This document shows positions 1 to 16,265 of a stretch of 16,265 bases of DNA, one piece after another. The DNA is taken from IMG/VR virus record IMGVR_UViG_2654587568_000017, one strand, 5' to 3'. The translations under genes were made by a program, and so were the position numbers. This stretch comes from a virus (Duplodnaviria > Heunggongvirae > Uroviricota > Caudoviricetes). A model generated the notes under the pieces. That model made no database searches. It was not told where the DNA came from and saw only the letters and a list, made by a program, of their open reading frames with translations. The first letter of the stretch is position 1, and every line of letters starts with the position of its first letter.

Positions 1-74
1 TCCGTAACGCCTCTGCCACGCGCGTAACGTGACAGGGATTAAGGGTAAACTAATTGATTTTGCAAGTTTTTATT

Positions 75-1361
75 TTACCCAGCTTTCTTATGGGGCATAC
101 ATGGGACACTTTCAGATAGTCTTTTGTTAAGGAGTTCTATCTGTTCGTGATTGTTGTCTTTCATCCATGCTCCGTAAACATTGAATACCATTTGTGCGTT
201 TGTGTGGCCCATCTGGCTTGCGATAAAACTAGGATTAGCTCCAGCGGCAAGTGACCAGCATGCATAAGTATGCCTGGATTGGTACGATTTTCTGTGTCTC
301 AGACCTGCGCGTTTTAAGATACTTGTCCATGACTCCCTGATGGAGTCAACCTTATAGTGCGGTCCGGAAAACTGCCGCTGTTTTATTACCTGAGGACTAA
401 AAACAAAAGTGCATTTATGCACAGTACTTCTCCCATATTCCCTCTGCTTTACCTCTACAGAATGTTGCTTTCCAAGCATGGTCATTTCCGCCTGACTTTT
501 AAGAGCATCAATAGCTGGTTGAACCAGATGAATTGTCCTTCCGGTGCCAGCATCGGTTTTTGGTGGAGTGAATTCGCCAAGTTTTGTATAATTCCTACGG
601 ATGGTTATAGTCCTTGCTTTAAGATCTATATCTTCCCATGCCAGCGATACCAGCTCCCCGTGACGAATACCCGTGTATACAGCGAGAATCCACAGGTTTT
701 TTGTTTGTTGATGACGGCAAGCTTCAATAAAACGAATAAATTCGTCACGGGTGAGAGGATCTGGTTTTACCTTGGACTTTTTTAAGGGTGCCAGACCGTT
801 AAATGGGTTTCCTGAGGTATAACCATTATCTGTTGCAAATTGAAACATTCCAGCTATGGTTGTCATATAGTAGTTTACTGTGACCACTGAGCGCCCTTTT
901 ATGGAAGAAATCTTTCCATTAGAAAGCTTTTGGTAACCGGTCAACAAATCTCTCCTTGCGAAAAGTAAATCCTCTTTTGTTATGGATGAAACCAGTTTTT
1001 TCTCACCCAACATAGGCAACATGTTTTTAATTACTGACTGGTAACGATTAAGTGCATTCGCACAAATCTCAATTTTCTTAAGGTCCAACCATTTTTCCGA
1101 AAGTGCCTTAACGGTTATCTCTCTTTTTCCCAGACCAAAGTGTTTCAGGTTAGGGGAATTAGGGAACTGCGCGGCGTAGTCGAAACTCCCCATTCTGATT
1201 GCAAAACAAACGGAAGTGCGAAGTTCACCAGCGATCTTCCGGTTTTTGGCTGTGTCAGGAACACCGAGGTTTTCTCTGACACGTTTGCCATTATAGTGAA
1301 ACCATATACGGAGTGATCCTCCATGGTTTTCAACGCCTGTCGGGTATGATGCGTTACTCAT
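75..1361 (-). CDS. int: Tyrosine-type site-specific recombinase (phage integrase)
   Basis: 428-aa ORF with ATG at 1361-1359 and GGGAGG 5 nt upstream. C-terminal region carries tyrosine-recombinase catalytic residues (R in TGIRHGEL, H/R in SRHTYACW, Tyr in VYGAW). Sits at the prophage end next to an excisionase-like gene. Confidence 0.9.
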   Translation of the reverse strand: MSNASYPTGVENHGGSLRIWFHYNGKRVRENLGVPDTAKNRKIAGELRTSVCFAIRMGSFDYAAQFPNSPNLKHFGLGKREITVKALSEKWLDLKKIEICANALNRYQSVIKNMLPMLGEKKLVSSITKEDLLFARRDLLTGYQKLSNGKISSIKGRSVVTVNYYMTTIAGMFQFATDNGYTSGNPFNGLAPLKKSKVKPDPLTRDEFIRFIEACRHQQTKNLWILAVYTGIRHGELVSLAWEDIDLKARTITIRRNYTKLGEFTPPKTDAGTGRTIHLVQPAIDALKSQAEMTMLGKQHSVEVKQREYGRSTVHKCTFVFSPQVIKQRQFSGPHYKVDSIRESWTSILKRAGLRHRKSYQSRHTYACWSLAAGANPSFIASQMGHTNAQMVFNVYGAWMKDNNHEQIELLNKRLSESVPCMPHKKAG

Positions 1362-1394
1362 TAAACCTCCCAGACGTCCAGGAGCATTAACAGG

Positions 1395-1649
1395 TTAACC
1401 GGAACTTGCATTTTTGGCACCTGGTTGTTTCTGGTTTTCGATCCATCGCATAATTTCTTCGATGTTGTACAGGCATTCACTGTAGTGCCCCGGATCACCT
1501 TCTACAGCGTAATGGCGGTATTCTTTTCCCTGCATCCATGACTTTCTTCTTGCCCGCTCAATGGTGCCAGGCTTTAGCCCTGTTGATGCAATGAGGACTC
1601 TCTCCGTACACCATTTGCTGGGGGTTATCTGATAGATGATTGTCTGCAT
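1395..1649 (-). CDS. xis: Excisionase-like small DNA-binding protein
   Basis: 84-aa ORF directly upstream of int on the same strand; ATG at 1649 with GAGGT SD. Basic, small, typical position for Xis; family assigned from memory, not searched. Confidence 0.6.
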   Translation of the reverse strand: MQTIIYQITPSKWCTERVLIASTGLKPGTIERARRKSWMQGKEYRHYAVEGDPGHYSECLYNIEEIMRWIENQKQPGAKNASSG

Positions 1650-1667
1650 GCCAACCTCATAAAATTT

Positions 1668-1802
1668 TCATCCACGGCAGTGGCACCACACTTCAAACAT
1701 TCGCTTCACAACTTCACGACAGTAGAAGCCGTCAACATCTCGCGTCAGGTCATAGCGATTGCCGTAACGCTGGTGGACCCATCGTTCAAATGCTTTATTC
1801 AT
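1668..1802 (-). CDS. Hypothetical small protein (44 aa, Cys/His-rich C-terminus)
   Basis: Below the ORF-track length cutoff; hand-translated as MNKAFERWVHQRYGNRYDLTRDVDGFYCREVVKRMFEVWCHCRG. ATG at 1802-1800 with AAGGAAG SD 7 nt upstream, three nt after the upstream gene's TAA; stop TGA at 1670-1668. Confidence 0.3.
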   Translation of the reverse strand: MNKAFERWVHQRYGNRYDLTRDVDGFYCREVVKRMFEVWCHCRG

Positions 1803-1805
1803 TCT

Positions 1806-2048
1806 TTACTTCCTTTTTATGGCTCGTAATTTTTTCAGGTGCTTTTCCTGCTCAGTGTCCGCGAGAATTTTGCGGTACTCCTGGTGGTCAATATGTTCGA
1901 ACAGGCAGTTTAACTCACCAATGCGTACCCGCCCGGATCGTCCGTCCATCCGTCGAAAGAACACTGAGTGCTCAGTGATGCGAGTAATCACCACGGGGTA
2001 TCCAGCTCTGTCCGTGTATATCTGACCGCGTTGAATCAAAGCGAACAT
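1806..2048 (-). CDS. Hypothetical phage protein (80 aa)
   Basis: ORF-track entry 1806..2084 begins with TTG; first ATG with an SD-like GGGGA is at 2048-2046. Sequence YTDRAGYPVVITRITEHSVFFRR resembles short prophage proteins of unknown function; recalled, not verified. Confidence 0.45.
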   Translation of the reverse strand: MFALIQRGQIYTDRAGYPVVITRITEHSVFFRRMDGRSGRVRIGELNCLFEHIDHQEYRKILADTEQEKHLKKLRAIKRK

Positions 2049-2132
2049 GTGGTTATCCCCATCGACAAATCGAGAACACAACAAACGCTGCTGCGAATAC
2101 CACCCCCAGAGTTACGATTGCATCAGGCCAGC

Positions 2133-2891
2133 TCATTGATTCACCTCCTGCCTGTCGTCCGGCATTCGCTCACTACAGCTTATCCAACCATCCGGAGTTA
2201 CCGGAGAGTTGCCCGATAGTGCATTCTGCTCCAGTGATGCTTTTACAAACCACGCTGCCTGAACTATAACGCCATGAATCCAGCGCAAATCAGCATCGCG
2301 ATCTTTCTTTTTCATCTTTTCGCCACTTAAGGCCTTGCTTATGTGGCTGCGTACCAGGTCTTCATGTAATTCCTTCGCCTCCTCAATGGTGAAACCACCA
2401 GGCAGAAGAGCCGGAGTTACCGGAGAGCTGGTTGACGCTTCCGGGATTTCCCGAAAATTATTGGTTGACGAATTCTTGCTTTCCCGAAAGTTTCCGGACT
2501 GAAGCATGGCGGTGCGGCAGGCGTTCCATATTTCGGCAGCAATATCGCGCTCGCTATCGGTTAATTTGTACGTGGAAACATAGCCAGAGAGCATTTCTAC
2601 GTTTTCCGGAGTTGCTTCTTCCGGCACTACCGGCGCTGGCGGGGCGGCAAATAGATATCCGCCAAAGTCAGGAAGCTCTCCAATGGCCTGTACGAACTTT
2701 TGTTTGCCTACGTCAACTCCTAATGGGTAATGAGCTATAATCTTTGCCACCGGCTCTGCTTCCAGCGATACCAGTGCAATTCGTGCCAGTTCTTCCGCTT
2801 CTTCTGCTGGCAGTACAACGTTGCTACCCGGTCCGTATGTTTCGCGCCACTGCTTGATTGTCAGCAGTCGCCCTTTGGTAATAGTGATCAT
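2133..2891 (-). CDS. Hypothetical phage protein (252 aa) with internal SPVTP repeat
   Basis: ATG at 2891-2889 overlaps the upstream stop (ATGA). Contains a perfect 17-bp direct repeat (2192-2208 and 2411-2427) encoding a duplicated SPVTP motif. C-terminus VTPDGWISCSERMPDD is reminiscent of a short conserved prophage C-terminal domain; unverified. Confidence 0.6.
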   Translation of the reverse strand: MITITKGRLLTIKQWRETYGPGSNVVLPAEEAEELARIALVSLEAEPVAKIIAHYPLGVDVGKQKFVQAIGELPDFGGYLFAAPPAPVVPEEATPENVEMLSGYVSTYKLTDSERDIAAEIWNACRTAMLQSGNFRESKNSSTNNFREIPEASTSSPVTPALLPGGFTIEEAKELHEDLVRSHISKALSGEKMKKKDRDADLRWIHGVIVQAAWFVKASLEQNALSGNSPVTPDGWISCSERMPDDRQEVNQ

Positions 2892-3403
2892 GCCGCGTTT
2901 CCTTCTTTCTTATTAACAATCACACCGTCATATATTTCATTAAGGTGCCCTCTCAACTCCATGCGCCTTAATGCAGATAACATGTAATCGCATTCAACCT
3001 GCTTATTCCCAGTAAATGGCTTATCGTCAGGATTACCCCAACAGCAATTACCCCTGGGCCATCCATGTACTTTCCGTACTCTTCCGTTAACAACGTGAAG
3101 TAATCCCCAGCCGGGAGGTAAATCCTCAACTGAAATAATTTCCGGCTCACTAATAAAGAATCGCCAGTCGCCCATGCCAAGTGAGGGATTTTTACGGAAA
3201 CGCTTTTTTCTATCTGCCAACAAGTCAGCACGAGAACACTTCGCCTCTATCAGGCATGATGCTGAATTTCTGAATCCCATAGCATCTGGCTGTTCTCCGG
3301 TACTGGTTACAGCAACAAAGCGGTCATGAAAGCAAACCTTGAACCCGTTGCGCTTAAGGAACTTGTACGCAATCTGACAGAGTTCGTGGTGTGTTAACGC
3401 CAT
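2888..3403 (-). CDS. Putative PD-(D/E)xK-fold nuclease-like protein (171 aa)
   Basis: ORF-track 2888..3436 starts with TTG; ATG at 3403-3401 has AAGGAGA 6 nt upstream and sits 1 nt after the Ea22-like stop. Motif GEQPD ... CLIEAK matches the PD...(D/E)xK signature; fold assignment is inference. Confidence 0.55.
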   Translation of the reverse strand: MALTHHELCQIAYKFLKRNGFKVCFHDRFVAVTSTGEQPDAMGFRNSASCLIEAKCSRADLLADRKKRFRKNPSLGMGDWRFFISEPEIISVEDLPPGWGLLHVVNGRVRKVHGWPRGNCCWGNPDDKPFTGNKQVECDYMLSALRRMELRGHLNEIYDGVIVNKKEGNAA

Positions 3404-3404
3404 A

Positions 3405-3890
3405 TCACTCTCCTTTGATGCGAATGCCTGTTGCAATGCTGTTTATGATGCTGTCAGTGCATGGGGTAGAAAGCTGGGCATCTCCAGCAATTTTCATGAC
3501 CTCAACATCTGCATATCGAATACCGAGGTGTATCAGACCGGCTATGCCTGACTTAAGCCGAGCATTTTCCATAAATAGAACTTTTGCCCGCTGTTTTTCT
3601 GCTTCAAGCTCAACGCGCAGCTTCCCTACCGTTAGCGCAATATCCTCGTTCTCCTGATCGCGGCTTTTGATGTATTGCAGGTTTCTTTCCCGTTCATCCA
3701 GCAGTGCCAGCACGGTTTCTGGTCCGGTCAGAAATTTGAAGGCGTTGAGCGCATCAATATCCACACCGTAATCTTTAAGTTCCTGTTCACTTAACAAGTC
3801 ATCATCAGCTGGCAACATTAACAGGCGTTCCATTGCTGGAATTGCACGTTCCGCCACCTCACGCAGTGCCTGGTAATTAATTTCGCTCAC
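3405..3890 (-). CDS. ea22: Ea22-like phage protein (161 aa)
   Basis: GTG start at 3890-3888 with AAGGAGG SD. N-terminus SEINYQALREVAE and C-terminal LLDERERNLQYIKSRDQENEDIALTVGKLRVELE ... GIRIKGE match my recollection of lambda Ea22-family proteins. Confidence 0.7.
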   Translation of the reverse strand: MSEINYQALREVAERAIPAMERLLMLPADDDLLSEQELKDYGVDIDALNAFKFLTGPETVLALLDERERNLQYIKSRDQENEDIALTVGKLRVELEAEKQRAKVLFMENARLKSGIAGLIHLGIRYADVEVMKIAGDAQLSTPCTDSIINSIATGIRIKGE

Positions 3891-4393
3891 TGGTTGCCTC
3901 CTTTGCGAAGCTGGGCAGCAAAGTCAACTAACCACTCAGTCATTTCAACCTTCCCTACCAGGTCTGAACCAGGGTACATACAGCAATCACTCTGCGCCGC
4001 TTTGAAATCCTTATACTCATATTCTTGGGCCACCAGATTTTTTGCAGCTTCTATAGCAGCATCCACCCCCTGCGCCCGGACTTCAGCCAGGAAAGCATCA
4101 GTGGTTGGCGTTTCAGGTATCTGTCTCCTCATCCGTTCTATTGCATGATTGAACCCGAAGTCTTCCGCGAGAGATACGTCATCCATATTGTCATTGTCAT
4201 CTTCAATATCCCGTGATTCTGGAATTGCAGACTTTATTCCCGCATTCTCCGCTGCCAGCGCCGCGCACTTGGCCTCAAGAGCGGCAACCACTTCCTGATG
4301 GTCTTTGTACTTAACGTATGAGCCGGAGATGTCATCACCTTCGGTGTTTAGCCATGCGTCATTGCAATTCACTGCGTAGGTTCTGATGCTCAT
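3887..4393 (-). CDS. Hypothetical acidic protein (168 aa)
   Basis: ORF-track 3887..4450 starts at TTG; ATG at 4393-4391 with GGGAGAG SD, ATGA overlap with the upstream small ORF and GTGA overlap with the Ea22-like gene. Asp/Glu-rich (DIEDDNDNMDD). Confidence 0.5.
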   Translation of the reverse strand: MSIRTYAVNCNDAWLNTEGDDISGSYVKYKDHQEVVAALEAKCAALAAENAGIKSAIPESRDIEDDNDNMDDVSLAEDFGFNHAIERMRRQIPETPTTDAFLAEVRAQGVDAAIEAAKNLVAQEYEYKDFKAAQSDCCMYPGSDLVGKVEMTEWLVDFAAQLRKGGNQ

Positions 4394-4575
4394 GTTGATG
4401 CTCTCCCGCCCCTGACAGACGCCAGGCCAGTCAATAAAGTATCCGCACAATGCCTACCCTCAGACGTGCGCGCAGGATAAATGCCGTTATGACCCGGCAA
4501 AATATATGCTACCCATTCATCTTGCGTTGCCTGTTCCGCCGCCTCGCGCAGTGCCTGATAGTCAATCTTGCTCAC
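4390..4575 (-). CDS. Short ORF carrying an Ea22-type N-terminal module (61 aa); possible recombination remnant
   Basis: GTG start with AAGGAGG SD. The 45 bp around this start (4541-4585) is a near-copy of the Ea22-like start region (3861-3905). Protein begins SKIDYQALREAAEQATQDEW then becomes low-complexity. Confidence 0.3.
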   Translation of the reverse strand: MSKIDYQALREAAEQATQDEWVAYILPGHNGIYPARTSEGRHCADTLLTGLASVRGGRAST

Positions 4576-4876
4576 TGGCAGCCTCCTTTGCCGGGATTTC
4601 TAACTTTTGAGTGGTTGTATCAAATTCAAACAACTTAACCACGTCATCAAACAGGACATAATCACCATCAGGATTTTCAGTCATATCTGCGCCACAATCC
4701 TGACCGCACGAGTCGCAACCATCCATATCAAGCTCGTATCGCTTCAGGTTTGCGATATTTGATAAATTCAGCGCCAGTACAGCCAGGTCATAAACCTCTT
4801 CGGCAGTGACATCGCTGTTCAGTCCCATTTCATGGCGATATATGATTTTTTCTACTCGTTGTTTTGTGATCGTCAT
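4562..4876 (-). CDS. Hypothetical protein (104 aa)
   Basis: ORF-track start 4900 is TTG; ATG at 4876-4874 has GGAGTG upstream. An alternative ATG at 4828 lies 1 nt after the upstream gene's stop. Acidic, with CDSCGQDC motif. Confidence 0.45.
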   Translation of the reverse strand: MTITKQRVEKIIYRHEMGLNSDVTAEEVYDLAVLALNLSNIANLKRYELDMDGCDSCGQDCGADMTENPDGDYVLFDDVVKLFEFDTTTQKLEIPAKEAASEQD

Positions 4877-5147
4877 TTTTCTCTTCACTCCGATATACAA
4901 GGATTACTACACCCCCTCTGCTGATTGCGCGAGCTGGATCCCCTGGTTCCATGCCGTCAATTCCGAAGGCTTCGGAAAACGCATTCATTGCCTTCTGGCG
5001 TTCATCCTGCTTACGGCGTTTATTCCATTTTTTCAGGAACAACAGCGACAGCCACCGTCCGCTGCAGAACACGATGTAAAAATAACCAAGGAGCGCCAGG
5101 CCGACATTCAGGGCCGTTTCTATGGTTAGTTGTGAGTCAGTTGCCAT
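4830..5147 (-). CDS. Small putative membrane protein (105 aa)
   Basis: ATG at 5147 with AGGT-type SD. One strongly hydrophobic segment (LNVGLALLGYFYIVFCSGRWLSLLFL) followed by a basic stretch KKWNKRRKQ, consistent with an N-in single-pass topology. Overlaps the next gene by up to 47 nt. Confidence 0.45.
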   Translation of the reverse strand: MATDSQLTIETALNVGLALLGYFYIVFCSGRWLSLLFLKKWNKRRKQDERQKAMNAFSEAFGIDGMEPGDPARAISRGGVVILVYRSEEKNDDHKTTSRKNHISP

Positions 5148-5385
5148 TTCTTACCTGTTTAAGTAACTGGTTGAACATAACACTTAGGGGATTGCTGTAT
5201 CCAAACGGCAGATTGTTTACGCAGTACAGAATCATTTTGTTTTTTTCTCCAGTTCGTACTATTAACCCATTCCACAATAACCGTGATAATTCATTACTGA
5301 TAGAAGTTGCGCTTCTTCCAAGTGCGAGGGATATATCTTCTCTACTGCAATCTGGATTTTCCTGGATATACTCGATAACGGTCAT
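5137..5385 (-). CDS. Small winged-helix-like DNA-binding protein (82 aa)
   Basis: ORF-track start 5427 overlaps the upstream gene by 32 nt; ATG at 5385 has AAAGGGA SD and follows the upstream TAA. EDISLALGRSATSISNELSRLLWNGLIV looks like an HTH/winged-helix recognition unit. Confidence 0.45.
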   Translation of the reverse strand: MTVIEYIQENPDCSREDISLALGRSATSISNELSRLLWNGLIVRTGEKNKMILYCVNNLPFGYSNPLSVMFNQLLKQVRNGN

Positions 5386-5395
5386 GTGGTCCCTT

Positions 5396-5977
5396 TTACT
5401 TAATATCTGTTTCGGATTGCATGCCATGAGTATTCATTTCGTTAATAATTTCATCCAGAAGGATTTCAAGCCCTTCTCGACCCATATCTGAAAGAATGAA
5501 ACCTTTATCAGGGGAAGTAGTGAGCATTTTCTGATAAAGAAACAGCGCTCTTCCCATTCCTTCAGCTTCGCCGTATTTTTGAATTAAATTCCATTCAATA
5601 TACTGTTGTAAGGCAAATCGAATGGGGCCGGGATATATCGTCATAAACCCATACATCCCGTTATATACCACGGCGTGTTCAGTTGTTCCGTGTTCATTCA
5701 GGATATCAATTGTGCCGTTCTTGTCTTCTTCTTCGTTGATGAATGTCGTCACATACAACCATCGCCACTGAGCAACCTTCATCTCAACCGGAAGTTTACC
5801 CAGTAATCCTGCTTCGTCGGCTTGCGCCAGACACTGAAGGATACGTAAACCTCGCACATTAGGAGTATCGAATTCTCCGGCATCCAGACGACGTATGGCG
5901 TCGTGATAATCAATCGTCATACTGCCAGTTCGTATACCATTGGCTGTTGCTTCAGCCTGGAATTCATCGTATTGCAT
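5396..5977 (-). CDS. Hypothetical protein (193 aa)
   Basis: ATG at 5977 with GAGGAA SD placed inside the end of the upstream gene; no recognisable motif. Confidence 0.6.
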   Translation of the reverse strand: MQYDEFQAEATANGIRTGSMTIDYHDAIRRLDAGEFDTPNVRGLRILQCLAQADEAGLLGKLPVEMKVAQWRWLYVTTFINEEEDKNGTIDILNEHGTTEHAVVYNGMYGFMTIYPGPIRFALQQYIEWNLIQKYGEAEGMGRALFLYQKMLTTSPDKGFILSDMGREGLEILLDEIINEMNTHGMQSETDIK

Positions 5978-5982
5978 GATAT

Positions 5983-6171
5983 TTATTCCTCATCTTCATC
6001 TTCATCTGCTGGTGCAATAACGTCATATCCTGCCTTTTCTGCAATAAACAGGAATGTTGAAAGAGTTCCTACAAGTTCATCGTCATGAACATGGAGAATG
6101 AATATTACTTTCCCGTTTTTGATGGTCAGCAATATTCTGGTTTGTTCGTGTTCTGCTGTTTTCTGATGCAT
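5983..6171 (-). CDS. Small protein with poly-acidic C-terminal tail (62 aa)
   Basis: ATG at 6171 with GGGAGA SD 6 nt upstream; C-terminus APADEDEDEE. Follows a 194-bp non-coding gap (6172-6365). Confidence 0.5.
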   Translation of the reverse strand: MHQKTAEHEQTRILLTIKNGKVIFILHVHDDELVGTLSTFLFIAEKAGYDVIAPADEDEDEE

Positions 6172-6365
6172 TATTATCTCCCGTATGCTTTACGCAGAAA
6201 TAAGCAGGCAATATGCATGTAATTTTCACCGTATTGTGCAATAAGGCAGGCGGTCTTGTGTGATGCCATATTCTTTATAAAAGTCACAATAAAGCCTCCT
6301 GTGGATTAAGGTTGTAACAATCCCCGGCGATAAAACCGCAATAAACGTTCAGGGCATATTTGTTG

Positions 6366-6731
6366 TTATTGCGCTAATTCTTTTTCGGCAGCAGCTTTTG
6401 TATACTCACATGCAAAACTCAGAATTTCGCTGCCGAGTGTTTTCGTTTCGTGATTACTGGACATATGTAATACCTGTGTTGCATGCAATAAATGATAAAC
6501 ATTTACCGCAAATGAATCAGGCTCCAGACAAATGCCTTCGTAATTATCTTGCTGTGAGGTTGTTTCTGTCATTGCTCCTGAAGTGCATGCGAGCCTGTTT
6601 TTGACAATTCTCTTTTCTCTAATCACTATATCGGCAACATCCATTGCCTTTACAACCTCCGGGAGAAGTTCCGGGTTTGTATAATCAAAGTCATCAACAT
6701 GGAGAACAGTTATGTTTTCGAACTTTTTCAT
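6366..6731 (-). CDS. Hypothetical protein (121 aa), second gene of cI-proximal module
   Basis: ATG at 6731 with GAGGAAG SD; preceded by a 128-bp gap carrying an inverted repeat; its stop codon lies within a possible hairpin (6337-6373). Confidence 0.55.
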   Translation of the reverse strand: MKKFENITVLHVDDFDYTNPELLPEVVKAMDVADIVIREKRIVKNRLACTSGAMTETTSQQDNYEGICLEPDSFAVNVYHLLHATQVLHMSSNHETKTLGSEILSFACEYTKAAAEKELAQ

Positions 6732-6859
6732 GGCTTCCTCAGCTGACTTATATGTTCTGCTATATAGCGAGTCTCAGAAGTGTTTTCATATTGAGACTGT
6801 TTCCGCAATGATTGATAAAAATGTTCGCATGTACCTTGAAGGGCGAAGCGGCGATTATG

Positions 6860-7408
6860 TCACCATTGGTATTGGTTCTTCCGCAGAAGAGCTTCGCGAG
6901 ATAAGGGGCAAACTTGTTGAGATGCGTCATGGTGTTGCTGCTCCTCACTTTTTGGTTGCTCCGGAGGAGTAACCTCACCAGTTAACAGGCACATCGGATC
7001 GCAGCCAAGAATATTTGCCAGTGGGATAAGCATACTGATAGTTGGTTCATACTCTCCGCTCTCCCACTGGATGATAATTTCTTCATCGAGATCGAGCAGC
7101 CTGGCGAGTTCGGCGGTTGTTAAGCCGCAGGCTTCGCGTTGGGTGCGAAGGTTAACCAGCCAGCTTTCAGGGAAGGATTGTTTTTGTTGTGCAGGAGAAG
7201 CAGCAGATAGAGCATATTCATGGATAAATTCCATTACCTCAATGCCCAGTTCCTTTGAGCGAGCACAATCCAGAAGATGGAATGTGCGTACAGCACTTAG
7301 CAAATTTGCAATATTTAATGCAAAGGAATCAAGTTCTAAGCCCTTAAGCGTAACACAGCCGCAGTTGATAAAATTAGTTGTTTCTGGAGTTGCTTTTAGT
7401 GTCTTCAT
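6860..7408 (-). CDS. XRE-family HTH-domain protein with ~90-aa N-terminal domain of unknown function (182 aa)
   Basis: ORF-track start 7438 is TTG; ATG at 7408-7406 with GGCGGA upstream. Central segment LRTQREACGLTTAELARLLDLDEEIIIQWESGEYEPTISMLIPLANILGCDPMCLL is a Cro/C1-type HTH; N-terminal part unrecognised. Confidence 0.6.
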   Translation of the reverse strand: MKTLKATPETTNFINCGCVTLKGLELDSFALNIANLLSAVRTFHLLDCARSKELGIEVMEFIHEYALSAASPAQQKQSFPESWLVNLRTQREACGLTTAELARLLDLDEEIIIQWESGEYEPTISMLIPLANILGCDPMCLLTGEVTPPEQPKSEEQQHHDASQQVCPLSREALLRKNQYQW

Positions 7409-7461
7409 ATATCCGCCAACAATTTTAAATTGAATCAAATCAAGTTATAATTGATGGTGCG

Positions 7462-7490
7462 ATATTATGTTTTGGGAAACAGGCTGTCAA
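7462..7490 (-). promoter_or_regulatory. Putative sigma70 promoter (PL-like) reading leftward into 6860-7408
   Basis: On the minus strand: TTGACA (plus 7490-7485), 17-nt spacer, TAATAT (plus 7467-7462). The ACTTGATTT motif shared with the cI-cro region lies just downstream (plus 7436-7444). Confidence 0.45.
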
Positions 7491-7520
7491 GAAAAAATTG
7501 ATATCGTATATTTCAGGCAG

Positions 7521-7543
7521 AAAAAAAACGGGCAAAGCCCGTT
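7521..7543 (-). terminator. Intrinsic terminator downstream of the repressor gene
   Basis: Minus strand reads AACGGGC-UUU-GCCCGUU followed by eight U; lies 12 nt after the repressor stop (7555-7557). Confidence 0.6.
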
Positions 7544-7554
7544 AAAATCAAAGA

Positions 7555-8244
7555 CTAACCAAATCTGTTTATGTTGAATGGTACTGATGAGATCACTTTA
7601 GACTGGATATAAAGCAGAGCTAACCCCTCTTTTTCGATGCTCCATGGTTGATAATTGGGGTTATCAGATAACACCATGATTTTGCTTCCAATTTTTTGAA
7701 GCCTTTTCACGTAGCATTCTCCATCAAAACAAAATGCATAAATACCATCGCCATCAAAATAAGTTACTGTCTTATCAAGAAAAAGAAGGTCGCCAGGTGA
7801 GATTGTGGGAGCCATACTGTCTCCTCTGGCGTTACCTATTTCTATATTTTTGAATGCCCGATTTCCAACAAGACGTCGGGCATATTCAGGATCAAGTTCT
7901 ATTGAGCGCACTACATCTATCAAGTCACCACGGACATGAGTTCCATCACCGCAACTAAACTCAACATCAAGGACATTAAATACGACGCTATCTGTTCTTG
8001 TCTGGTGTTTCTCTTGCGAGGAAAAGGTTGGTGAGGAGTCTTCACCTAAGAACCAGGATTGTGGATAACCGCTAATCTCTGATAAATGCGCGAGCTTATC
8101 ACTCCGTGGAAATGTTTTTCCTGTTGTCCAGTACTGCACTGATTGCGCACTCACACCTAACTTGCGGGCCAGTTGAGCCTGAGTCCATCCTTTTGCTTTC
8201 AGCATCGCGGCTATTCGATTTTCCGTGTTTTTGACGTTCTTCAT
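7555..8244 (-). CDS. cI: CI/LexA-type prophage repressor (HTH plus S24 peptidase domain)
   Basis: ORF-track start 8250 is TTG; ATG at 8244 has AGGA upstream. N-terminal HTH (GWTQAQLARKLGVSAQSVQYW), C-terminal Ser/Lys dyad (GDSMAP ... YVKRL), possible Cys-Gly autocleavage site (SCGDG, UmuD-like). Confidence 0.85.
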   Translation of the reverse strand: MKNVKNTENRIAAMLKAKGWTQAQLARKLGVSAQSVQYWTTGKTFPRSDKLAHLSEISGYPQSWFLGEDSSPTFSSQEKHQTRTDSVVFNVLDVEFSCGDGTHVRGDLIDVVRSIELDPEYARRLVGNRAFKNIEIGNARGDSMAPTISPGDLLFLDKTVTYFDGDGIYAFCFDGECYVKRLQKIGSKIMVLSDNPNYQPWSIEKEGLALLYIQSKVISSVPFNINRFG

Positions 8245-8377
8245 GACCAAATCCTGTGGGTTTCTTTACAAGGATAAATCTTTACTTGATTTTAGTGTAT
8301 TCGATCCTTTTGTAACTTGCATGTTAATTTAAACTTGATGTATTCTTGATTTATAAAGTTAATATTGGTGCTTTGTT
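8245..8377. promoter_or_regulatory. Divergent promoter/operator region between the repressor and Cro-like genes
   Basis: 133-bp AT-rich gap between divergent genes with three CTTGAT copies (8286, 8335, 8346), two of them 11 bp apart, and a TAATAT hexamer at 8361-8366. Exact operators and promoters not resolved. Confidence 0.55.
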
Positions 8378-8668
8378 ATGGAAGGAAATGATTACGACAA
8401 ACTTCGTGCATTAATTGCGCAAAATGCCATAGCGCGAAATCTTGGTGTGACGCCGCAAGCGGTGAATCAGTGGTTTTCAAAAAGCACAATTCCTGCTCGT
8501 TTCGTTTTACGAGTATGTGAAGTAGTTGCATGGAAGGTTACGCCTCATGGCTTAAGGCCAGATCTTTATCCTCACCCTGAAGATGGAATTCCTAACTTGT
8601 TACGCAAAAGCCTAAATCCAAGTTCACCACACAGAGCGGATGGAATACACGCAGGAGATAAACAATGA
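8378..8668 (+). CDS. Cro-like small HTH regulator (96 aa)
   Basis: First gene rightward from the operator region, divergent from cI; HTH-like segment NAIARNLGVTPQAVNQW; stop overlaps the next start (ATGA). Confidence 0.6.
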   Translation: MEGNDYDKLRALIAQNAIARNLGVTPQAVNQWFSKSTIPARFVLRVCEVVAWKVTPHGLRPDLYPHPEDGIPNLLRKSLNPSSPHRADGIHAGDKQ

Positions 8669-9372
8669 ACACCGCAATTTTTAACGGCAAAGCATCCATG
8701 ACCAGCGTTGAGATCGCAGAGCTGGTGGGAAGCCGACCAGATAGTGTTAAGAGAACTATTGAAACACTGGCTAAAAAGGGAATCATCCAATTTCCACAGA
8801 CTGTGGAAATTGAGAATAAACAATCACTTGGGCCTCGCCGATTTTCTAGCGCGTATGTATTCGAAGGTGAACGAGGTAAGCGCGACAGCATCATTGTCGT
8901 CGCACAGCTCTGTCCTGAATTCACAGCTCGCCTGGTAGATCGCTGGCGCGAACTGGAAGAACAGATCCGTAAGCCAATGAGCGAAATCGAAATGGTTGCC
9001 GCGATGGCTCTTGAAGCCGTTCGCCAACAGAAACGGATCACTCAGGTGGAAGAAAAAGTCAGCCACGTTGCTGAAACAGTCGAGCAAATTAAAAAGGGCA
9101 CTATTCGTGAGGGCTATGCCGGATATCGCCAACTGAAAGCAAAAACCGGTTTGTCAGATGATAAATGCCGCAATCTGGTGAACGCCTATCAAATTCCTAC
9201 AGACACACATGAGTTCATGACGCCGGACGGATTGTTGTCACGTCGCGCAATTGTTGCTGTGGAACCGTTTATGGCTGCTTTTTATCGGGTTATGGAGGAA
9301 GCAGAACCGCGAGGGACTCGCTGGTATCACCCGAAAATGGGGTTATTTCAGGTTATTGGTTGGCAGCGATGA
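8665..9372 (+). CDS. Phage regulatory protein, divergent Rha-like N-terminal domain (235 aa)
   Basis: ATG at 8665 with AGGAGA SD. N-terminus MTSVEIAELVGSRPDSVKRTIETL ... GPRRF ... IIVVAQLCPEFTARLVDRW loosely parallels the Rha pattern; assignment from memory. Confidence 0.55.
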   Translation: MNTAIFNGKASMTSVEIAELVGSRPDSVKRTIETLAKKGIIQFPQTVEIENKQSLGPRRFSSAYVFEGERGKRDSIIVVAQLCPEFTARLVDRWRELEEQIRKPMSEIEMVAAMALEAVRQQKRITQVEEKVSHVAETVEQIKKGTIREGYAGYRQLKAKTGLSDDKCRNLVNAYQIPTDTHEFMTPDGLLSRRAIVAVEPFMAAFYRVMEEAEPRGTRWYHPKMGLFQVIGWQR

Positions 9373-9395
9373 AAAAAAGCCGGGAGTAACCCGGC
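9372..9395 (-). terminator. Intrinsic terminator-like hairpin oriented for minus-strand transcription
   Basis: Plus strand AAAAAAA-GCCGGG-AGTAA-CCCGGC; on the minus strand this is a 6-bp GC stem followed by seven U. The plus side has no U-run. Confidence 0.5.
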
Positions 9396-9591
9396 TCACT
9401 CAACATCAATAACGGGGAGCTGTTTCGCATAAAACGGCTCCGAAACATCCAAGAACAGTTCTAAAGATATCAGCAGCTATATGATCATTTCAAGACCAAA
9501 TATTGATTCTGCAATTTCGGGACGTTACACTGTCTCCGCACCTTATAAAGCGGGTGCCGGGATTGGCGTCCTGAAATTCGCACATGCGCAT

Positions 9592-9614
9592 AACCGCGCT
9601 TCAGCGGTTTTTTT
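9592..9614 (+). terminator. Intrinsic terminator-like hairpin for rightward transcription
   Basis: AACCGC-GCTTCA-GCGGTT followed by a T7 run, inside the 9373-9777 non-coding gap. Confidence 0.45.
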
Positions 9615-9777
9615 GCGCACGTTTCCTCACATCCAAATTATGGTGGGGCGTGCAGGGGCATCGAAAGATGCGCCGGGGTCATGTGCGACCGGTTACGCCA
9701 ACCCTGTACGTCTCACCACCTCTGTGATTGGCGTCCCATGTGGTGAGTTTTCAAAATTCGCACATGAGGATGTCACT

Positions 9778-10329
9778 ATGGCAACCACCCCTACCCAAAC
9801 TCACTCTAAAATTGATGTTATCCATGGGAAGGCTGTTACCTCTTCTTTGGCCGTTGCCGAATATTTCTGCAAGCAGCACAAAAACGTTATTCAAAAAATC
9901 CAGACGCTTGAGTGCTCTGTTGAATTCACTGAGCTGAATTTTCAGCCCAGTGATTACACCGATTGCACAGGCCGCAAACTACCTTGCTATCAAATCACCC
10001 GCGATGGCTTCGCGTTCCTTGCTATGGGCTTTACTGGCAAACGTGCAGCCCGGTTCAAAGAGGCATACATCAACGCCTTTAACCAGATGGAGAAGAATTT
10101 ATCTGGTGCTGACGCGGTTGATATGTCAGCTGTCGCACGAAACGCCAGAGGCGTATACCTGCATTTGCGTGAAATCCATCAAATCTGGACAAGCCAGCTT
10201 TATCCAATGCTTAAGGCCGTTGAATCTCCGCTGGCTAGCAAACTGTACGACCGTGTTGGTGATGCTGTTTTTGGCGCTGCACTTGTTGATTCCAGGCTGA
10301 ATGGTTCTGACAAGGAGGTTCGCCCATGA
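9778..10329 (+). CDS. rha: Rha-family phage regulatory protein (183 aa)
   Basis: ORF-track 9481..10329; ATG at 9778 with GAGGATG SD is the likely start. KAVTSSLAVAEYFCKQHKNVIQKIQTL and GFAFLAMGFTGKRAARFKEAYINAFNQME match the Rha signature as I recall it. The upstream 99 in-frame codons are low-complexity. Confidence 0.75.
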   Translation: MATTPTQTHSKIDVIHGKAVTSSLAVAEYFCKQHKNVIQKIQTLECSVEFTELNFQPSDYTDCTGRKLPCYQITRDGFAFLAMGFTGKRAARFKEAYINAFNQMEKNLSGADAVDMSAVARNARGVYLHLREIHQIWTSQLYPMLKAVESPLASKLYDRVGDAVFGAALVDSRLNGSDKEVRP

Positions 10330-14891: not shown

Positions 14892-16265
14892 ATGGTACTT
14901 TCTGATTGTTATTCATGGGCTAACGAGCAGTTTGGACATGCCCGTCTCGGTGATCCGCGTCGTACACGACGCCTTGTGTCACTGGCCTCTTCTCTCGCTC
15001 AGCATGCAGGTCTTTCTATTGTGAAATCATCCCAGTCCACTGCTCAGGTTGAAGGTGCGTACCGCCTGATACGTAACCCGTCTGTGTCCCCGCAAGCCAT
15101 TGCCGAAGCCGGATTTACCGCCACTGTAAGGGCATGTGAGGCTCATCCGCTGCTCCTCGCGCTGGAAGACACCACCACCATTAACTTCAGTCACAGTACG
15201 GCATCTGATGACCTGGGGAATACCACCACTAACCCGAAGACGCGCGGGCTGCTGGCTCACTCTGTCCTGATGTACGCCCCCGACAGCGCCCTGCCAGTCG
15301 GTCTTATCGAACAGCAGCGCTGGAGTCGTGCCACGGACACCTACGGTGTTAAGCACCAGCGAAAAGAACGTCCCTATGAAGAAAAAGAAAGTTACCGCTG
15401 GCAGCAGGCTTCGGAGCGCATGGCCGAACGGCTGGGGGAGATACAGAAACGGGTAATCACTGTCTGTGACCGGGAAGCGGATATCTGGCATTACCTGCAT
15501 TATAAAGTCAGCCACGGGCAGCGCTTCGTGGTGCGTGCAGCACAGAATCGCCGGCTGGAAGAAGCACCCGGCAAGCTCTTCGAACTGCCGGAAGTCCTGG
15601 CAACCGCGGGAAGCCACACGCTGAATGTGATGCAAAAAGGCGGGCGGGCAGCCCGCCAGGCCCGGATGTTCATCAGTTACAGCGAAGTCAGCATAAAAAA
15701 TCCCGACAACAGCGGCCAGGCGCTCCCGCTCACGTATGTCTGTTGCCGGGAGCAGGCAGAGGACGGCGCCTGCTGGCATCTGCTGACGTCAGAAAAAGTG
15801 GCGAGTGCCGCCGATGCGCGACGTATCGTCAGCCATTACGAGCGACGCTGGCTGATAGAGGAATACCACAAGGCGTGGAAAAGTGGTGGTACATGTGTGG
15901 AATCGCTGCGAATGCAGACCCGGGATAACCTCGAGCGCATGGTGGTTATCAAGGCGTTTATCGCGGTGCGGGTGCTGGGCCTGCGGCAGGGCGGTATCAG
16001 TGAAGAAACACAAAATGACAGCTGTGAGAAAATACTGACGCCGACAGAGTGGAAACTGCTGTGGGTTAAGCTGGAAGGAAAACCGCTTCCGTCACAGATG
16101 CCGACACTGAAATGGGCCTGTCTGAAACTGGCGAAACTGGGGCGATGGCATGACAGCAAACGCACCGGTCGCCCCGGTTGGGTAGTCATGTGGGATGGCT
16201 GGTTCAGACTTCAGGATATGGTTGAGGGTTACCTGGTGATGAAGTCTCTTGATCAGGAGATCTGA
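14892..16265 (+). CDS. tnp: Transposase, IS4 family, IS50/Tn5-like (457 aa)
   Basis: Collinear similarity to Tn5 transposase as I recall it: GDPRRTRRLV, VITVCDREADIWHYL, RFVVRAAQNRR, YERRWLIEEYHKAWKSG, NLERMVVIKAFIAVRVLGLR, GRWHDSKRTGRPGW. Confidence 0.9.
   Translation: MVLSDCYSWANEQFGHARLGDPRRTRRLVSLASSLAQHAGLSIVKSSQSTAQVEGAYRLIRNPSVSPQAIAEAGFTATVRACEAHPLLLALEDTTTINFSHSTASDDLGNTTTNPKTRGLLAHSVLMYAPDSALPVGLIEQQRWSRATDTYGVKHQRKERPYEEKESYRWQQASERMAERLGEIQKRVITVCDREADIWHYLHYKVSHGQRFVVRAAQNRRLEEAPGKLFELPEVLATAGSHTLNVMQKGGRAARQARMFISYSEVSIKNPDNSGQALPLTYVCCREQAEDGACWHLLTSEKVASAADARRIVSHYERRWLIEEYHKAWKSGGTCVESLRMQTRDNLERMVVIKAFIAVRVLGLRQGGISEETQNDSCEKILTPTEWKLLWVKLEGKPLPSQMPTLKWACLKLAKLGRWHDSKRTGRPGWVVMWDGWFRLQDMVEGYLVMKSLDQEI

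Follow-up and report, generated by a model that had tools for sequence, protein, structure and literature searches.

What an early-left operon of a lambda-like phage encodes when none of the genes that define it in lambda can be recognised is a question raised by a stretch of 16,265 nucleotides from a tailed virus of the Caudoviricetes (IMG/VR record IMGVR_UViG_2654587568_000017; the whole stretch is called the window here). Between positions 3405 and 6171 the window carries a block of small, closely packed genes on the minus strand, which an earlier interpretation made from the letters and their open reading frames (ORFs), the sequence-only reading, had taken for an early-left operon without N or recombination functions. 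We think it likely that this block is the centre of a repressor-controlled polycistronic operon that is transcribed from the early leftward promoter (PL), has no need of N and codes for accessory modulators. Judged by synteny, the block consists of a conserved PL-proximal core (the genes p37, p62 and p193) and a dispensable mosaic cassette that extends from a winged-helix gene to a gene of the Ead/Ea22 family.

The gene content had been given as ten genes; the minus strand of 3405-6171 holds eight ORFs, two of which are pieces of one Ea22-family gene, so that the block comprises seven genes. These are listed below in the direction of transcription, preceded by p37, which ends 2 nucleotides (nt) ahead of p62.

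6174-6287, minus strand: p37, a basic microprotein of 37 amino acids (aa) with an AGGAGG-N7-GTG start
5983-6171, minus strand: p62, 62 aa, isoelectric point (pI) 4.6, with an acidic C-terminal tail; phrog_340, E 4e-21
5396-5977, minus strand: p193, 193 aa, acidic (pI 4.6); phrog_1515, E 3e-90
5137-5385, minus strand: wHTH, an 82-aa MarR-like winged helix-turn-helix (wHTH) protein; an alternative start at 5427 gives 96 aa
4830-5147, minus strand: DUF4752 protein, pI 9.4; PF15944, E 7e-37; phrog_667, E 3e-40
4562-4876, minus strand: p104, 104 aa, pI 4.2; phrog_3126, E 2e-63
3887-4575, minus strand: Ea22b, one gene broken by a +2 frameshift and read as the ORFs 4390-4575 and 3887-4393
3405-3890, minus strand: Ea22a, intact, 161 aa; PF13935, E 4e-31, 108.8 bits over the full profile

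Each ORF of the block matches a PHROG or Pfam family, with E-values from 1e-21 to 1e-90, and the ratio of non-synonymous to synonymous changes (pN/pS) against diverged orthologues is low for the DUF4752 gene (0.18), wHTH (0.27), p193 (0.25-0.28) and p37 (0.21-0.26). Because of these family matches and low ratios the ORFs can be regarded as real genes rather than chance readings, and the ratios indicate that purifying selection acts on the four genes just named. The ORFs do abut or overlap, as had been described, with junctions of +5, +10, -11, -47, -14, -4 and -4 nt from the 5' to the 3' end, the overlap of 47 nt being that of p104 with the DUF4752 gene; this part of the claim of tight coupling stands. 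The ATGA junction at 4390-4393, on the other hand, is only a by-product of the frameshift in Ea22b and not a case of evolved coupling. Five of the proteins are acidic (pI 4.2-4.8), where two had been claimed.

The division into core and cassette comes from comparison with related loci, a synteny analysis of the kind that the sequence-only reading had proposed for telling conserved from variable genes. Among 80 related IMG/VR loci with close relatives of p193, the genes p193, p62 and p37 occur together in every one (80/80), and the next two genes towards the promoter, p121 and HTH182, are found in 78 and 68 of them, respectively. The cassette genes are present far less regularly: wHTH in 55/80, the DUF4752 gene in 47/80, Ea22a in 44/80 and p104 in 37/80. 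Indeed, in 25 of the 80 loci p193 is directly followed by the genes that lie beyond the block in the window (p44, DUF4222, xis and int). A more distant set of 75 loci, in which the p193 homologue is only 40-46% identical, retains p37 in 66, int in 53, cI in 48 and xis in 46 cases; among the examples listed for this set the order is cI ... p37 ... p193 - xis - int. The small p37 gene, which has no PHROG or Pfam family, is thus kept even where p193 has diverged strongly, and it is annotated in the phages PhiR49_2 and Stx1_14040.

As for the products of the core, the claim that 5396-5977 encodes a 193-aa protein without assigned function is borne out. At 50% identity the p193 family falls into about 104 clusters; none of the 48 members scanned against Pfam hit a family, a scan of the genome contigs found no relative, and a phmmer search of the PDB sequences gave nothing below E 1.5. 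An AlphaFold2 (AF2) model of p193 has a mean predicted local distance difference test score (pLDDT) of 84.8 and a predicted template modelling score (pTM) of 0.82, showing short beta-hairpins packed on long helices, and a Foldseek search of BFVD with this model found nothing at E<=0.001. The protein is thus predicted to fold confidently, without a structural neighbour in PDB or BFVD, and its acidity argues against a nucleic-acid-binding role. For p62, weak matches were seen to the C-terminal parts of anti-repressor PHROGs (E 8.5e-5 and 1.6e-3).

The block is not an operon on its own. It had been said to begin at 6171 and to end at 3405; three genes (6860-7408, 6366-6731 and 6174-6287) lie between its upstream border and a putative PL at 7490-7462, and beyond its downstream border the next gene (2888-3403) starts 1 nt past the stop codon at 3405-3407. 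The features that frame the block are the following.

7555-8244, minus strand: cI-like repressor, helix-turn-helix (HTH) plus S24 peptidase domain (LexA-like)
7527-7543, minus strand: intrinsic terminator immediately downstream of the repressor gene, formed by a G+C-rich stem of 7 bp and a run of T behind it
7490-7462, minus strand: putative PL, TTGACA - 17 nt - TAATAT
7419-7433, 7440-7454 and 7487-7501, around PL: TCAA-N7-TTGA sites, putative leftward operator (OL)
6860-7408, minus strand: HTH182, XRE-type HTH; PF01381, E 3e-10; phrog_4836 ('CII-like regulator'), E 4e-77
6730-6972, plus strand: ORF of 80 aa with a full-length phrog_6104 match, E 1.4e-49; absent from the RefSeq annotation
6366-6731, minus strand: p121, phrog_5451, E 4e-83; homologue of phiP27 L08 with 95% aa identity
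2888-3403, minus strand: p171, 171 aa, predicted PD-(D/E)XK nuclease fold, MmcB/SPO1766-like, 1 nt past the Ea22a stop
2133-2891, minus strand: p252, with a truncated DUF551 domain
1806-2048, minus strand: DUF4222 gene
1668-1802, minus strand: p44
1395-1649, minus strand: excisionase (xis)
75-1361, minus strand: integrase (int)

The putative promoter is the best sigma-70 match in 3000-8800 (10/12). Besides the three operator-like sites around it, two further TCAA-N7-TTGA sites lie in the gap between cI and cro (8275-8289 and 8324-8338), so that the PL-side gap and the cI-cro gap together hold 5 of the 12 such matches in the window; inverted-repeat pairs also link the two gaps. From this arrangement we infer that 7490-7462 is the PL/OL region. 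Between 8250 and 75 the minus strand has just one strong terminator-like site, that at 7543-7527, and a simple pattern search saw no strong minus-strand terminator between 7460 (PL) and 75 (the end of int). Transcription would start at the repressor-controlled PL and proceed through HTH182, p121, p37, the block, p171, p252, DUF4222, p44, xis and int, yielding one polycistronic message that would be expressed on loss of the repressor, and the short gaps and overlaps would permit translational coupling. With no strong intrinsic terminator on the way from PL to int, such an operon would not need N.

The absence of recognisable N and recombination genes, which the sequence-only reading had reported by eye, held in four profile libraries. 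The ORFs of the left arm were compared with Pfam (E<=0.1), PHROGs, NCBIfam and PADLOC, and none was assigned to N, Exo, Bet, Gam, RecT/RecE, Erf, Sak or SSB; the assignment to standard recombination or antitermination families that could have overturned the claim was not seen. The same searches did turn up the Ea22 family, which the reader had missed; also overlooked was p171, the MmcB-like gene just past the block. In the right arm, which holds a Cro-like protein, Rha/Ash proteins, a 330-aa protein, a DnaC-like ATPase, a DnaB-like helicase and the transposase of an insertion sequence (IS), no N, recombination or defence family was found either. Matches to boxA (CGCTCTTTAA, with <=2 mismatches) number 10 against 14.3 expected, none of them near PL or PR, and a six-frame scan for arginine-rich motifs found Arg-rich stretches out of frame only, none in real ORFs. 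The first gene after PL, in the position of lambda N, is HTH182, which is acidic (pI 4.8) and so unlike the small basic protein that would be expected of a lambda-type N. At the RNA level, the Rfam search (E<=1) of the left arm (1-9500) gave nothing, and the RNA of the 194-nt gap ahead of p62 (6172-6365) is no more stably folded than its shuffled counterparts (z -0.15). On these profile and motif searches the window belongs to a phage group without N/nut antitermination and without a Red, RecET or Erf module, for which there is a precedent in the Eru1-type Shiga toxin (Stx) phages, reported to lack N, CII and CIII (PMC8044961).

The best described genes of the block are those of the Ead/Ea22 family, a hallmark of the lambda exo-xis region with a reported pro-lysogenic effect; Ea22 is reported to be a tetramer, with a common N-terminus and coiled coil and with unrelated, swappable C-terminal domains (PMC7093339, PMC10834534). 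Three ORFs belong to this family by the curated PF13935 cut-off of 27 bits (IPR025153): in addition to the intact Ea22a, the ORFs 4390-4575 and 3887-4393 score 54.0 and 43.3 bits. The former, of 61 aa, covers profile positions 1-45 and the latter positions 48-138, as would two halves of one gene, and in strain NCCP 13905 a single intact Ea22-like gene of 228 aa is present, whose DNA is 98.8% identical to Ea22b. Relative to that gene, Ea22b has a TG insertion at 4446-4449. The frame changes behind codon 43, and an internal Met serves as the start of the downstream piece; the copy in SF-088 is likewise marked as frameshifted by the annotation pipeline of RefSeq (PGAP). The Ea22 gene of PhiR49_2 had been considered as the intact form of Ea22b and was rejected, being a different mosaic. 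The label of mostly uncharacterised accessory content, which the sequence-only reading had attached to the block, is fair on the whole, with the exception of these three ORFs of a described family.

The Ea22 copies share their N-termini (MSEINYQALRE and MSKIDYQALRE), and the PF13935 profile spans the N-terminus and the central part. Neither Ea22a nor Ea22b finds an Ea22 entry among all PDB chains (phmmer, E<=10), and both C-terminal domains appear, by sequence, unrelated to the solved C-terminal domain of lambda Ea22. Since the family is known for unrelated C-terminal domains, the missing match does not exclude membership. By analogy with the Ea22 proteins of lambda and of Stx phages, Ea22-type proteins would act as oligomeric coiled coils with a swappable C-terminal domain and probably tip the lysis-lysogeny choice in favour of lysogeny. 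The Ea22 part of the window (3300-4566) has counterparts with about 95% identity in P1-like phage-plasmids (MH422554.1, MH445380.1), and 356 of the 1532 E. coli matches to Ea22b are on plasmids, a distribution that points to exchange of the Ea22 cassette between lambdoid prophages and P1-type elements.

Of the remaining cassette genes, the small winged-helix protein proposed for 5137-5385 was confirmed by PHROG and Pfam profile searches. It matches phrog_1687 ('MarR family') with E 1e-24, over profile positions 65-150 of 162 only, and reaches 22.9 bits with Pfam MarR_2, below the 27-bit cut-off; at 82-96 aa it is a bare wHTH domain. A homologue carries the MarR label in Stx1a phages, and RefSeq/PGAP leaves the interval 5137-5385 empty. 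The description of 4830-5147 as a membrane protein with one helix and a basic patch agrees with the hydrophobic segment at residues 12-30 and the basic stretch behind it, but the comparison with Kil/SieB-type proteins finds no profile support: the PHROG search returned only phrog_667 and phrog_29388, neither of them Kil or SieB, and the protein is a member of the DUF4752 family (125.8 bits over the full-length PF15944 profile, cut-off 27), on which no papers were found. A common N-terminal domain of p104 and p252, both of which touch phrog_3323 and phrog_60, is not claimed, as pairwise BLASTP between them was empty.

Outside the block, p121 and HTH182 share a paralogous segment (the C-terminal residues 69-115 and the N-terminal residues 24-70, respectively; 43% identity, E 9e-10). 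The counterparts of these two genes in Stx1a/Stx2a phages encode 66 aa and about 216 aa, which suggests that the paralogous domain moves between them. The match of HTH182 to phiP27 L10 in a tblastn search (76.5% identity) is confined to the HTH part, residues 67-147 or 45% of HTH182, and a near-identical copy of HTH182 in PhiR49_2 is labelled L10. The 80-aa ORF on the plus strand overlaps the 3' end of HTH182 by about 110 nt. Downstream, p252 contains in its residues 235-250 only the first 16 of 68 DUF551 profile positions and looks like a C-terminally truncated mosaic 'ea'-type gene.

The gene immediately after the block, p171, encodes a protein with the alpha-beta-beta-beta-alpha-beta core and the D...(D/E)xK motif of PD-(D/E)XK nucleases, its D40, E53 and K55 being invariant in 28 homologues; the AF2 model has a pLDDT of 78.9. 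There is no Pfam match (E<=0.1) and no NCBIfam match, and the p171 profile reaches only E 0.55 against the PDB sequences, to 3dnx (SPO1766), an entry that we take to be linked to the MmcB family. The D...ExK motif of the MmcB-like SPO1766 structure is also present in p171, which differs from it in lacking a curated family match. On this modelling p171 is a candidate nuclease and not a member of a known recombination family. RefSeq/PGAP calls it a frameshifted pseudogene; this is an error, as the ORF of 171 aa is unbroken and conserved across the Enterobacterales.

Which known system does this left arm resemble? The closest is that of the Stx2e phage phiP27 (L01-L11), where int, xis, small genes, L06, L07, L08, L10 and the repressor follow in the same order; PhiR49_2 and related Stx1a/Stx2a-converting phages share this layout. 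L06 is 65% identical to p193 and L07 49% identical to p62 at the aa level, a p37 homologue that is unannotated in phiP27 is 70% identical, and the opposite-strand ORF of the window lies in the position of L09. Unlike the window, phiP27 and the yecE-type Stx2a phages are without the wHTH-DUF4752-p104-Ea22 cassette and have a lipoprotein or serine-protease gene instead; the repressor/immunity type varies among members of the phiP27-like group, and the combination of two Ea22 genes is the window's own. Papers on Stx-phage genomics contained nothing specific on this left arm. Among characterised systems, the nearest analogue is the lambda exo-xis region, together with the P22 ead-'ea' genes: here too a PL operon with PF13935 proteins lies upstream of xis and int, and the exo-xis region is likewise a non-essential mosaic of small ORFs in close packing (PMC10834534). 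It differs in that exo, bet and gam are missing upstream in the window and in that one Ea22 copy is frameshifted, and lambda orf60a, orf61, orf63, orf73 and ea8.5 were not detected in the window. With the Eru1-type Stx phages (TL-2011c and relatives) the window shares a temperate, lambda-like nature, a pathogenic E. coli host and the lack of a lambda-type N (PMC8044961), as well as a LexA-like S24 repressor. The replication genes are different, the window having the 330-aa protein, the DnaC-like ATPase and the DnaB-like helicase where Eru1 phages have superfamily 2 (SF2) helicase, Toprim and DUF1367 proteins.

The origin of the window can be given in some detail. Over bases 3300-6400 the window shows 100% identity to E. 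coli O55:H7 RM12579 (NC_017656.1), where the element is a prophage whose integrase gene directly adjoins mlrA (yehV), the gene of a 233-aa product in RefSeq; this junction corresponds to positions 1-75 of the window. At least 80% of this interval is present in 21 of 5426 complete E. coli genomes, and some part of it in 2656. The mlrA/yehV locus is, we presume, the site that is used by the Stx1 prophage of O157:H7. The closest deposited phage genome is that of Escherichia phage PhiR49_2 (99.2% identity over 70% of the query), the annotation of which uses the labels 'L08' and 'L10', that is, phiP27 gene names; several Stx1a/Stx2a-converting phages are about 93% identical to the query. From these identities the window is assigned to a phiP27-like temperate phage integrated next to mlrA/yehV in RM12579.

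In the right arm, an IS4/Tn5-type transposase gene with Tnp_DNA_bind, DDE_Tnp_1 and Tn5 dimerisation domains (14892-16265, plus strand) runs off the end of the window directly after the DnaB-like helicase gene, with a local G+C content of up to 0.57-0.60, and an IS element appears to interrupt the prophage there. A separate observation concerns three Rfam matches on the plus strand, all inside the ORF annotated as Ash/Rha (9481-10329), in its 5' part: C4 antisense RNA (75.1 bits at 9636-9723) and isrK (62.3 bits at 9538-9614), both above the gathering score, and a c4-a1b1 target at 9525-9577, below threshold. These matches suggest a P1/P7-type antisense control of an antirepressor, and the annotated start of the Ash/Rha ORF may be wrong.

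The same features have to be weighed against other explanations. Host takeover had been suggested by the sequence-only reading: the block could be mainly a host-takeover, anti-defence or superinfection-exclusion island, a view that can overlap with that of an accessory PL operon; p62, p104 and the Ea22 C-terminal domains would then be inhibitors or DNA mimics, and the DUF4752 protein a membrane exclusion or Kil-like factor. The early position of the genes, the mosaic and dispensable nature of the cassette, pieces of which also occur on P1-like phage-plasmids, the five acidic proteins, the single hydrophobic helix and basic patch of the DUF4752 protein and a weak match of wHTH to the 'Ren-like exclusion' phrog_142 (E 5e-5) are all compatible with such a role, yet the PADLOC defence models overlap nothing but generic HTH/wHTH domains, there is no match to PHROGs of the Kil, SieB, Ral, Gam, Abc or Ocr type, and the Ea22 proteins, the only relatives studied by experiment, affect the lysis-lysogeny choice rather than defence (PMC7093339). 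We consider an island of this kind rather unlikely. That the block is instead the decaying DNA of a defective element, its tight packing a relic, would agree with the +2 frameshift in Ea22b, the truncated DUF551 domain of p252, the transposase from 14892 on and the pseudogenes that PGAP marks here; but all remaining ORFs are intact, with sequences that agree completely or almost completely with those of PhiR49_2 and of Stx-converting phage genomes, four genes have a family-level pN/pS below 0.3, and the pseudogene call on p171 is mistaken, which makes decay an improbable account of the block.

A further possibility is that the core, with or without HTH182, is a non-homologous replacement for the early-left functions of lambda, be it a new factor for antitermination or processivity, a host modulator of the CIII/Kil type, or a protein for recombination or end protection. 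The core is always linked to the immunity region and neighbours PL, the place of N, cIII, kil and gam in lambda, in a phage group without any of the classical genes, and p193 combines purifying selection with a confident model that has no PDB or BFVD neighbour. Co-conservation, however, can simply reflect common descent; no similarity of sequence or fold to such factors was found, the arginine-rich motif is missing and boxA is not above chance, no terminators were seen that would need antitermination, and p193 and p62 are acidic and so unsuited to nucleic-acid binding. A replacement of this type seems to us very unlikely. The reading of the block as the accessory centre of a PL operon, with a core that would travel with the immunity region and other products that would act as accessory modulators, has weak points of its own. 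It leaves the conserved core without an assigned function, and p193, with a confident model and no structural neighbour, could hide a regulatory or DNA-metabolic role. The pN/pS of p62 (0.46-1.10, from very few substitutions) indicates weak purifying selection or none. PL, the operators and polycistronic read-through are read from consensus matches, and Rho-dependent or weak terminators are beyond the reach of the simple pattern search. As the C-terminal domains are unrelated to that of lambda, the transfer of a pro-lysogenic function to the two Ea22 genes is weak, and the frameshifted gene, the truncated DUF551 and the IS in the right arm together mean that this particular copy may no longer be expressed as described.

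The finding is an ordinary one and changes little. Public databases already contain the sequence (RefSeq) and its families, and the layout is no novelty within the phage group, being that of phiP27, sequenced in 2002, and of many Stx-converting phages. Its practical value lies in annotation, namely the recognition of the two halves of the frameshifted Ea22 gene, of the wHTH gene and the opposite-strand ORF missed by RefSeq, and of the wrong pseudogene flag on p171. The split into core and cassette offers a starting point for work on phiP27-like and Stx phages without N; the p37-p62-p193 core alone holds some promise of new biology. There is a slim chance that this core is a new early-function module, that is, an early-transcription regulator or host-factor inhibitor in place of N, CIII or Kil-type proteins; if that were true, p193 would represent a protein fold not yet among the solved structures.

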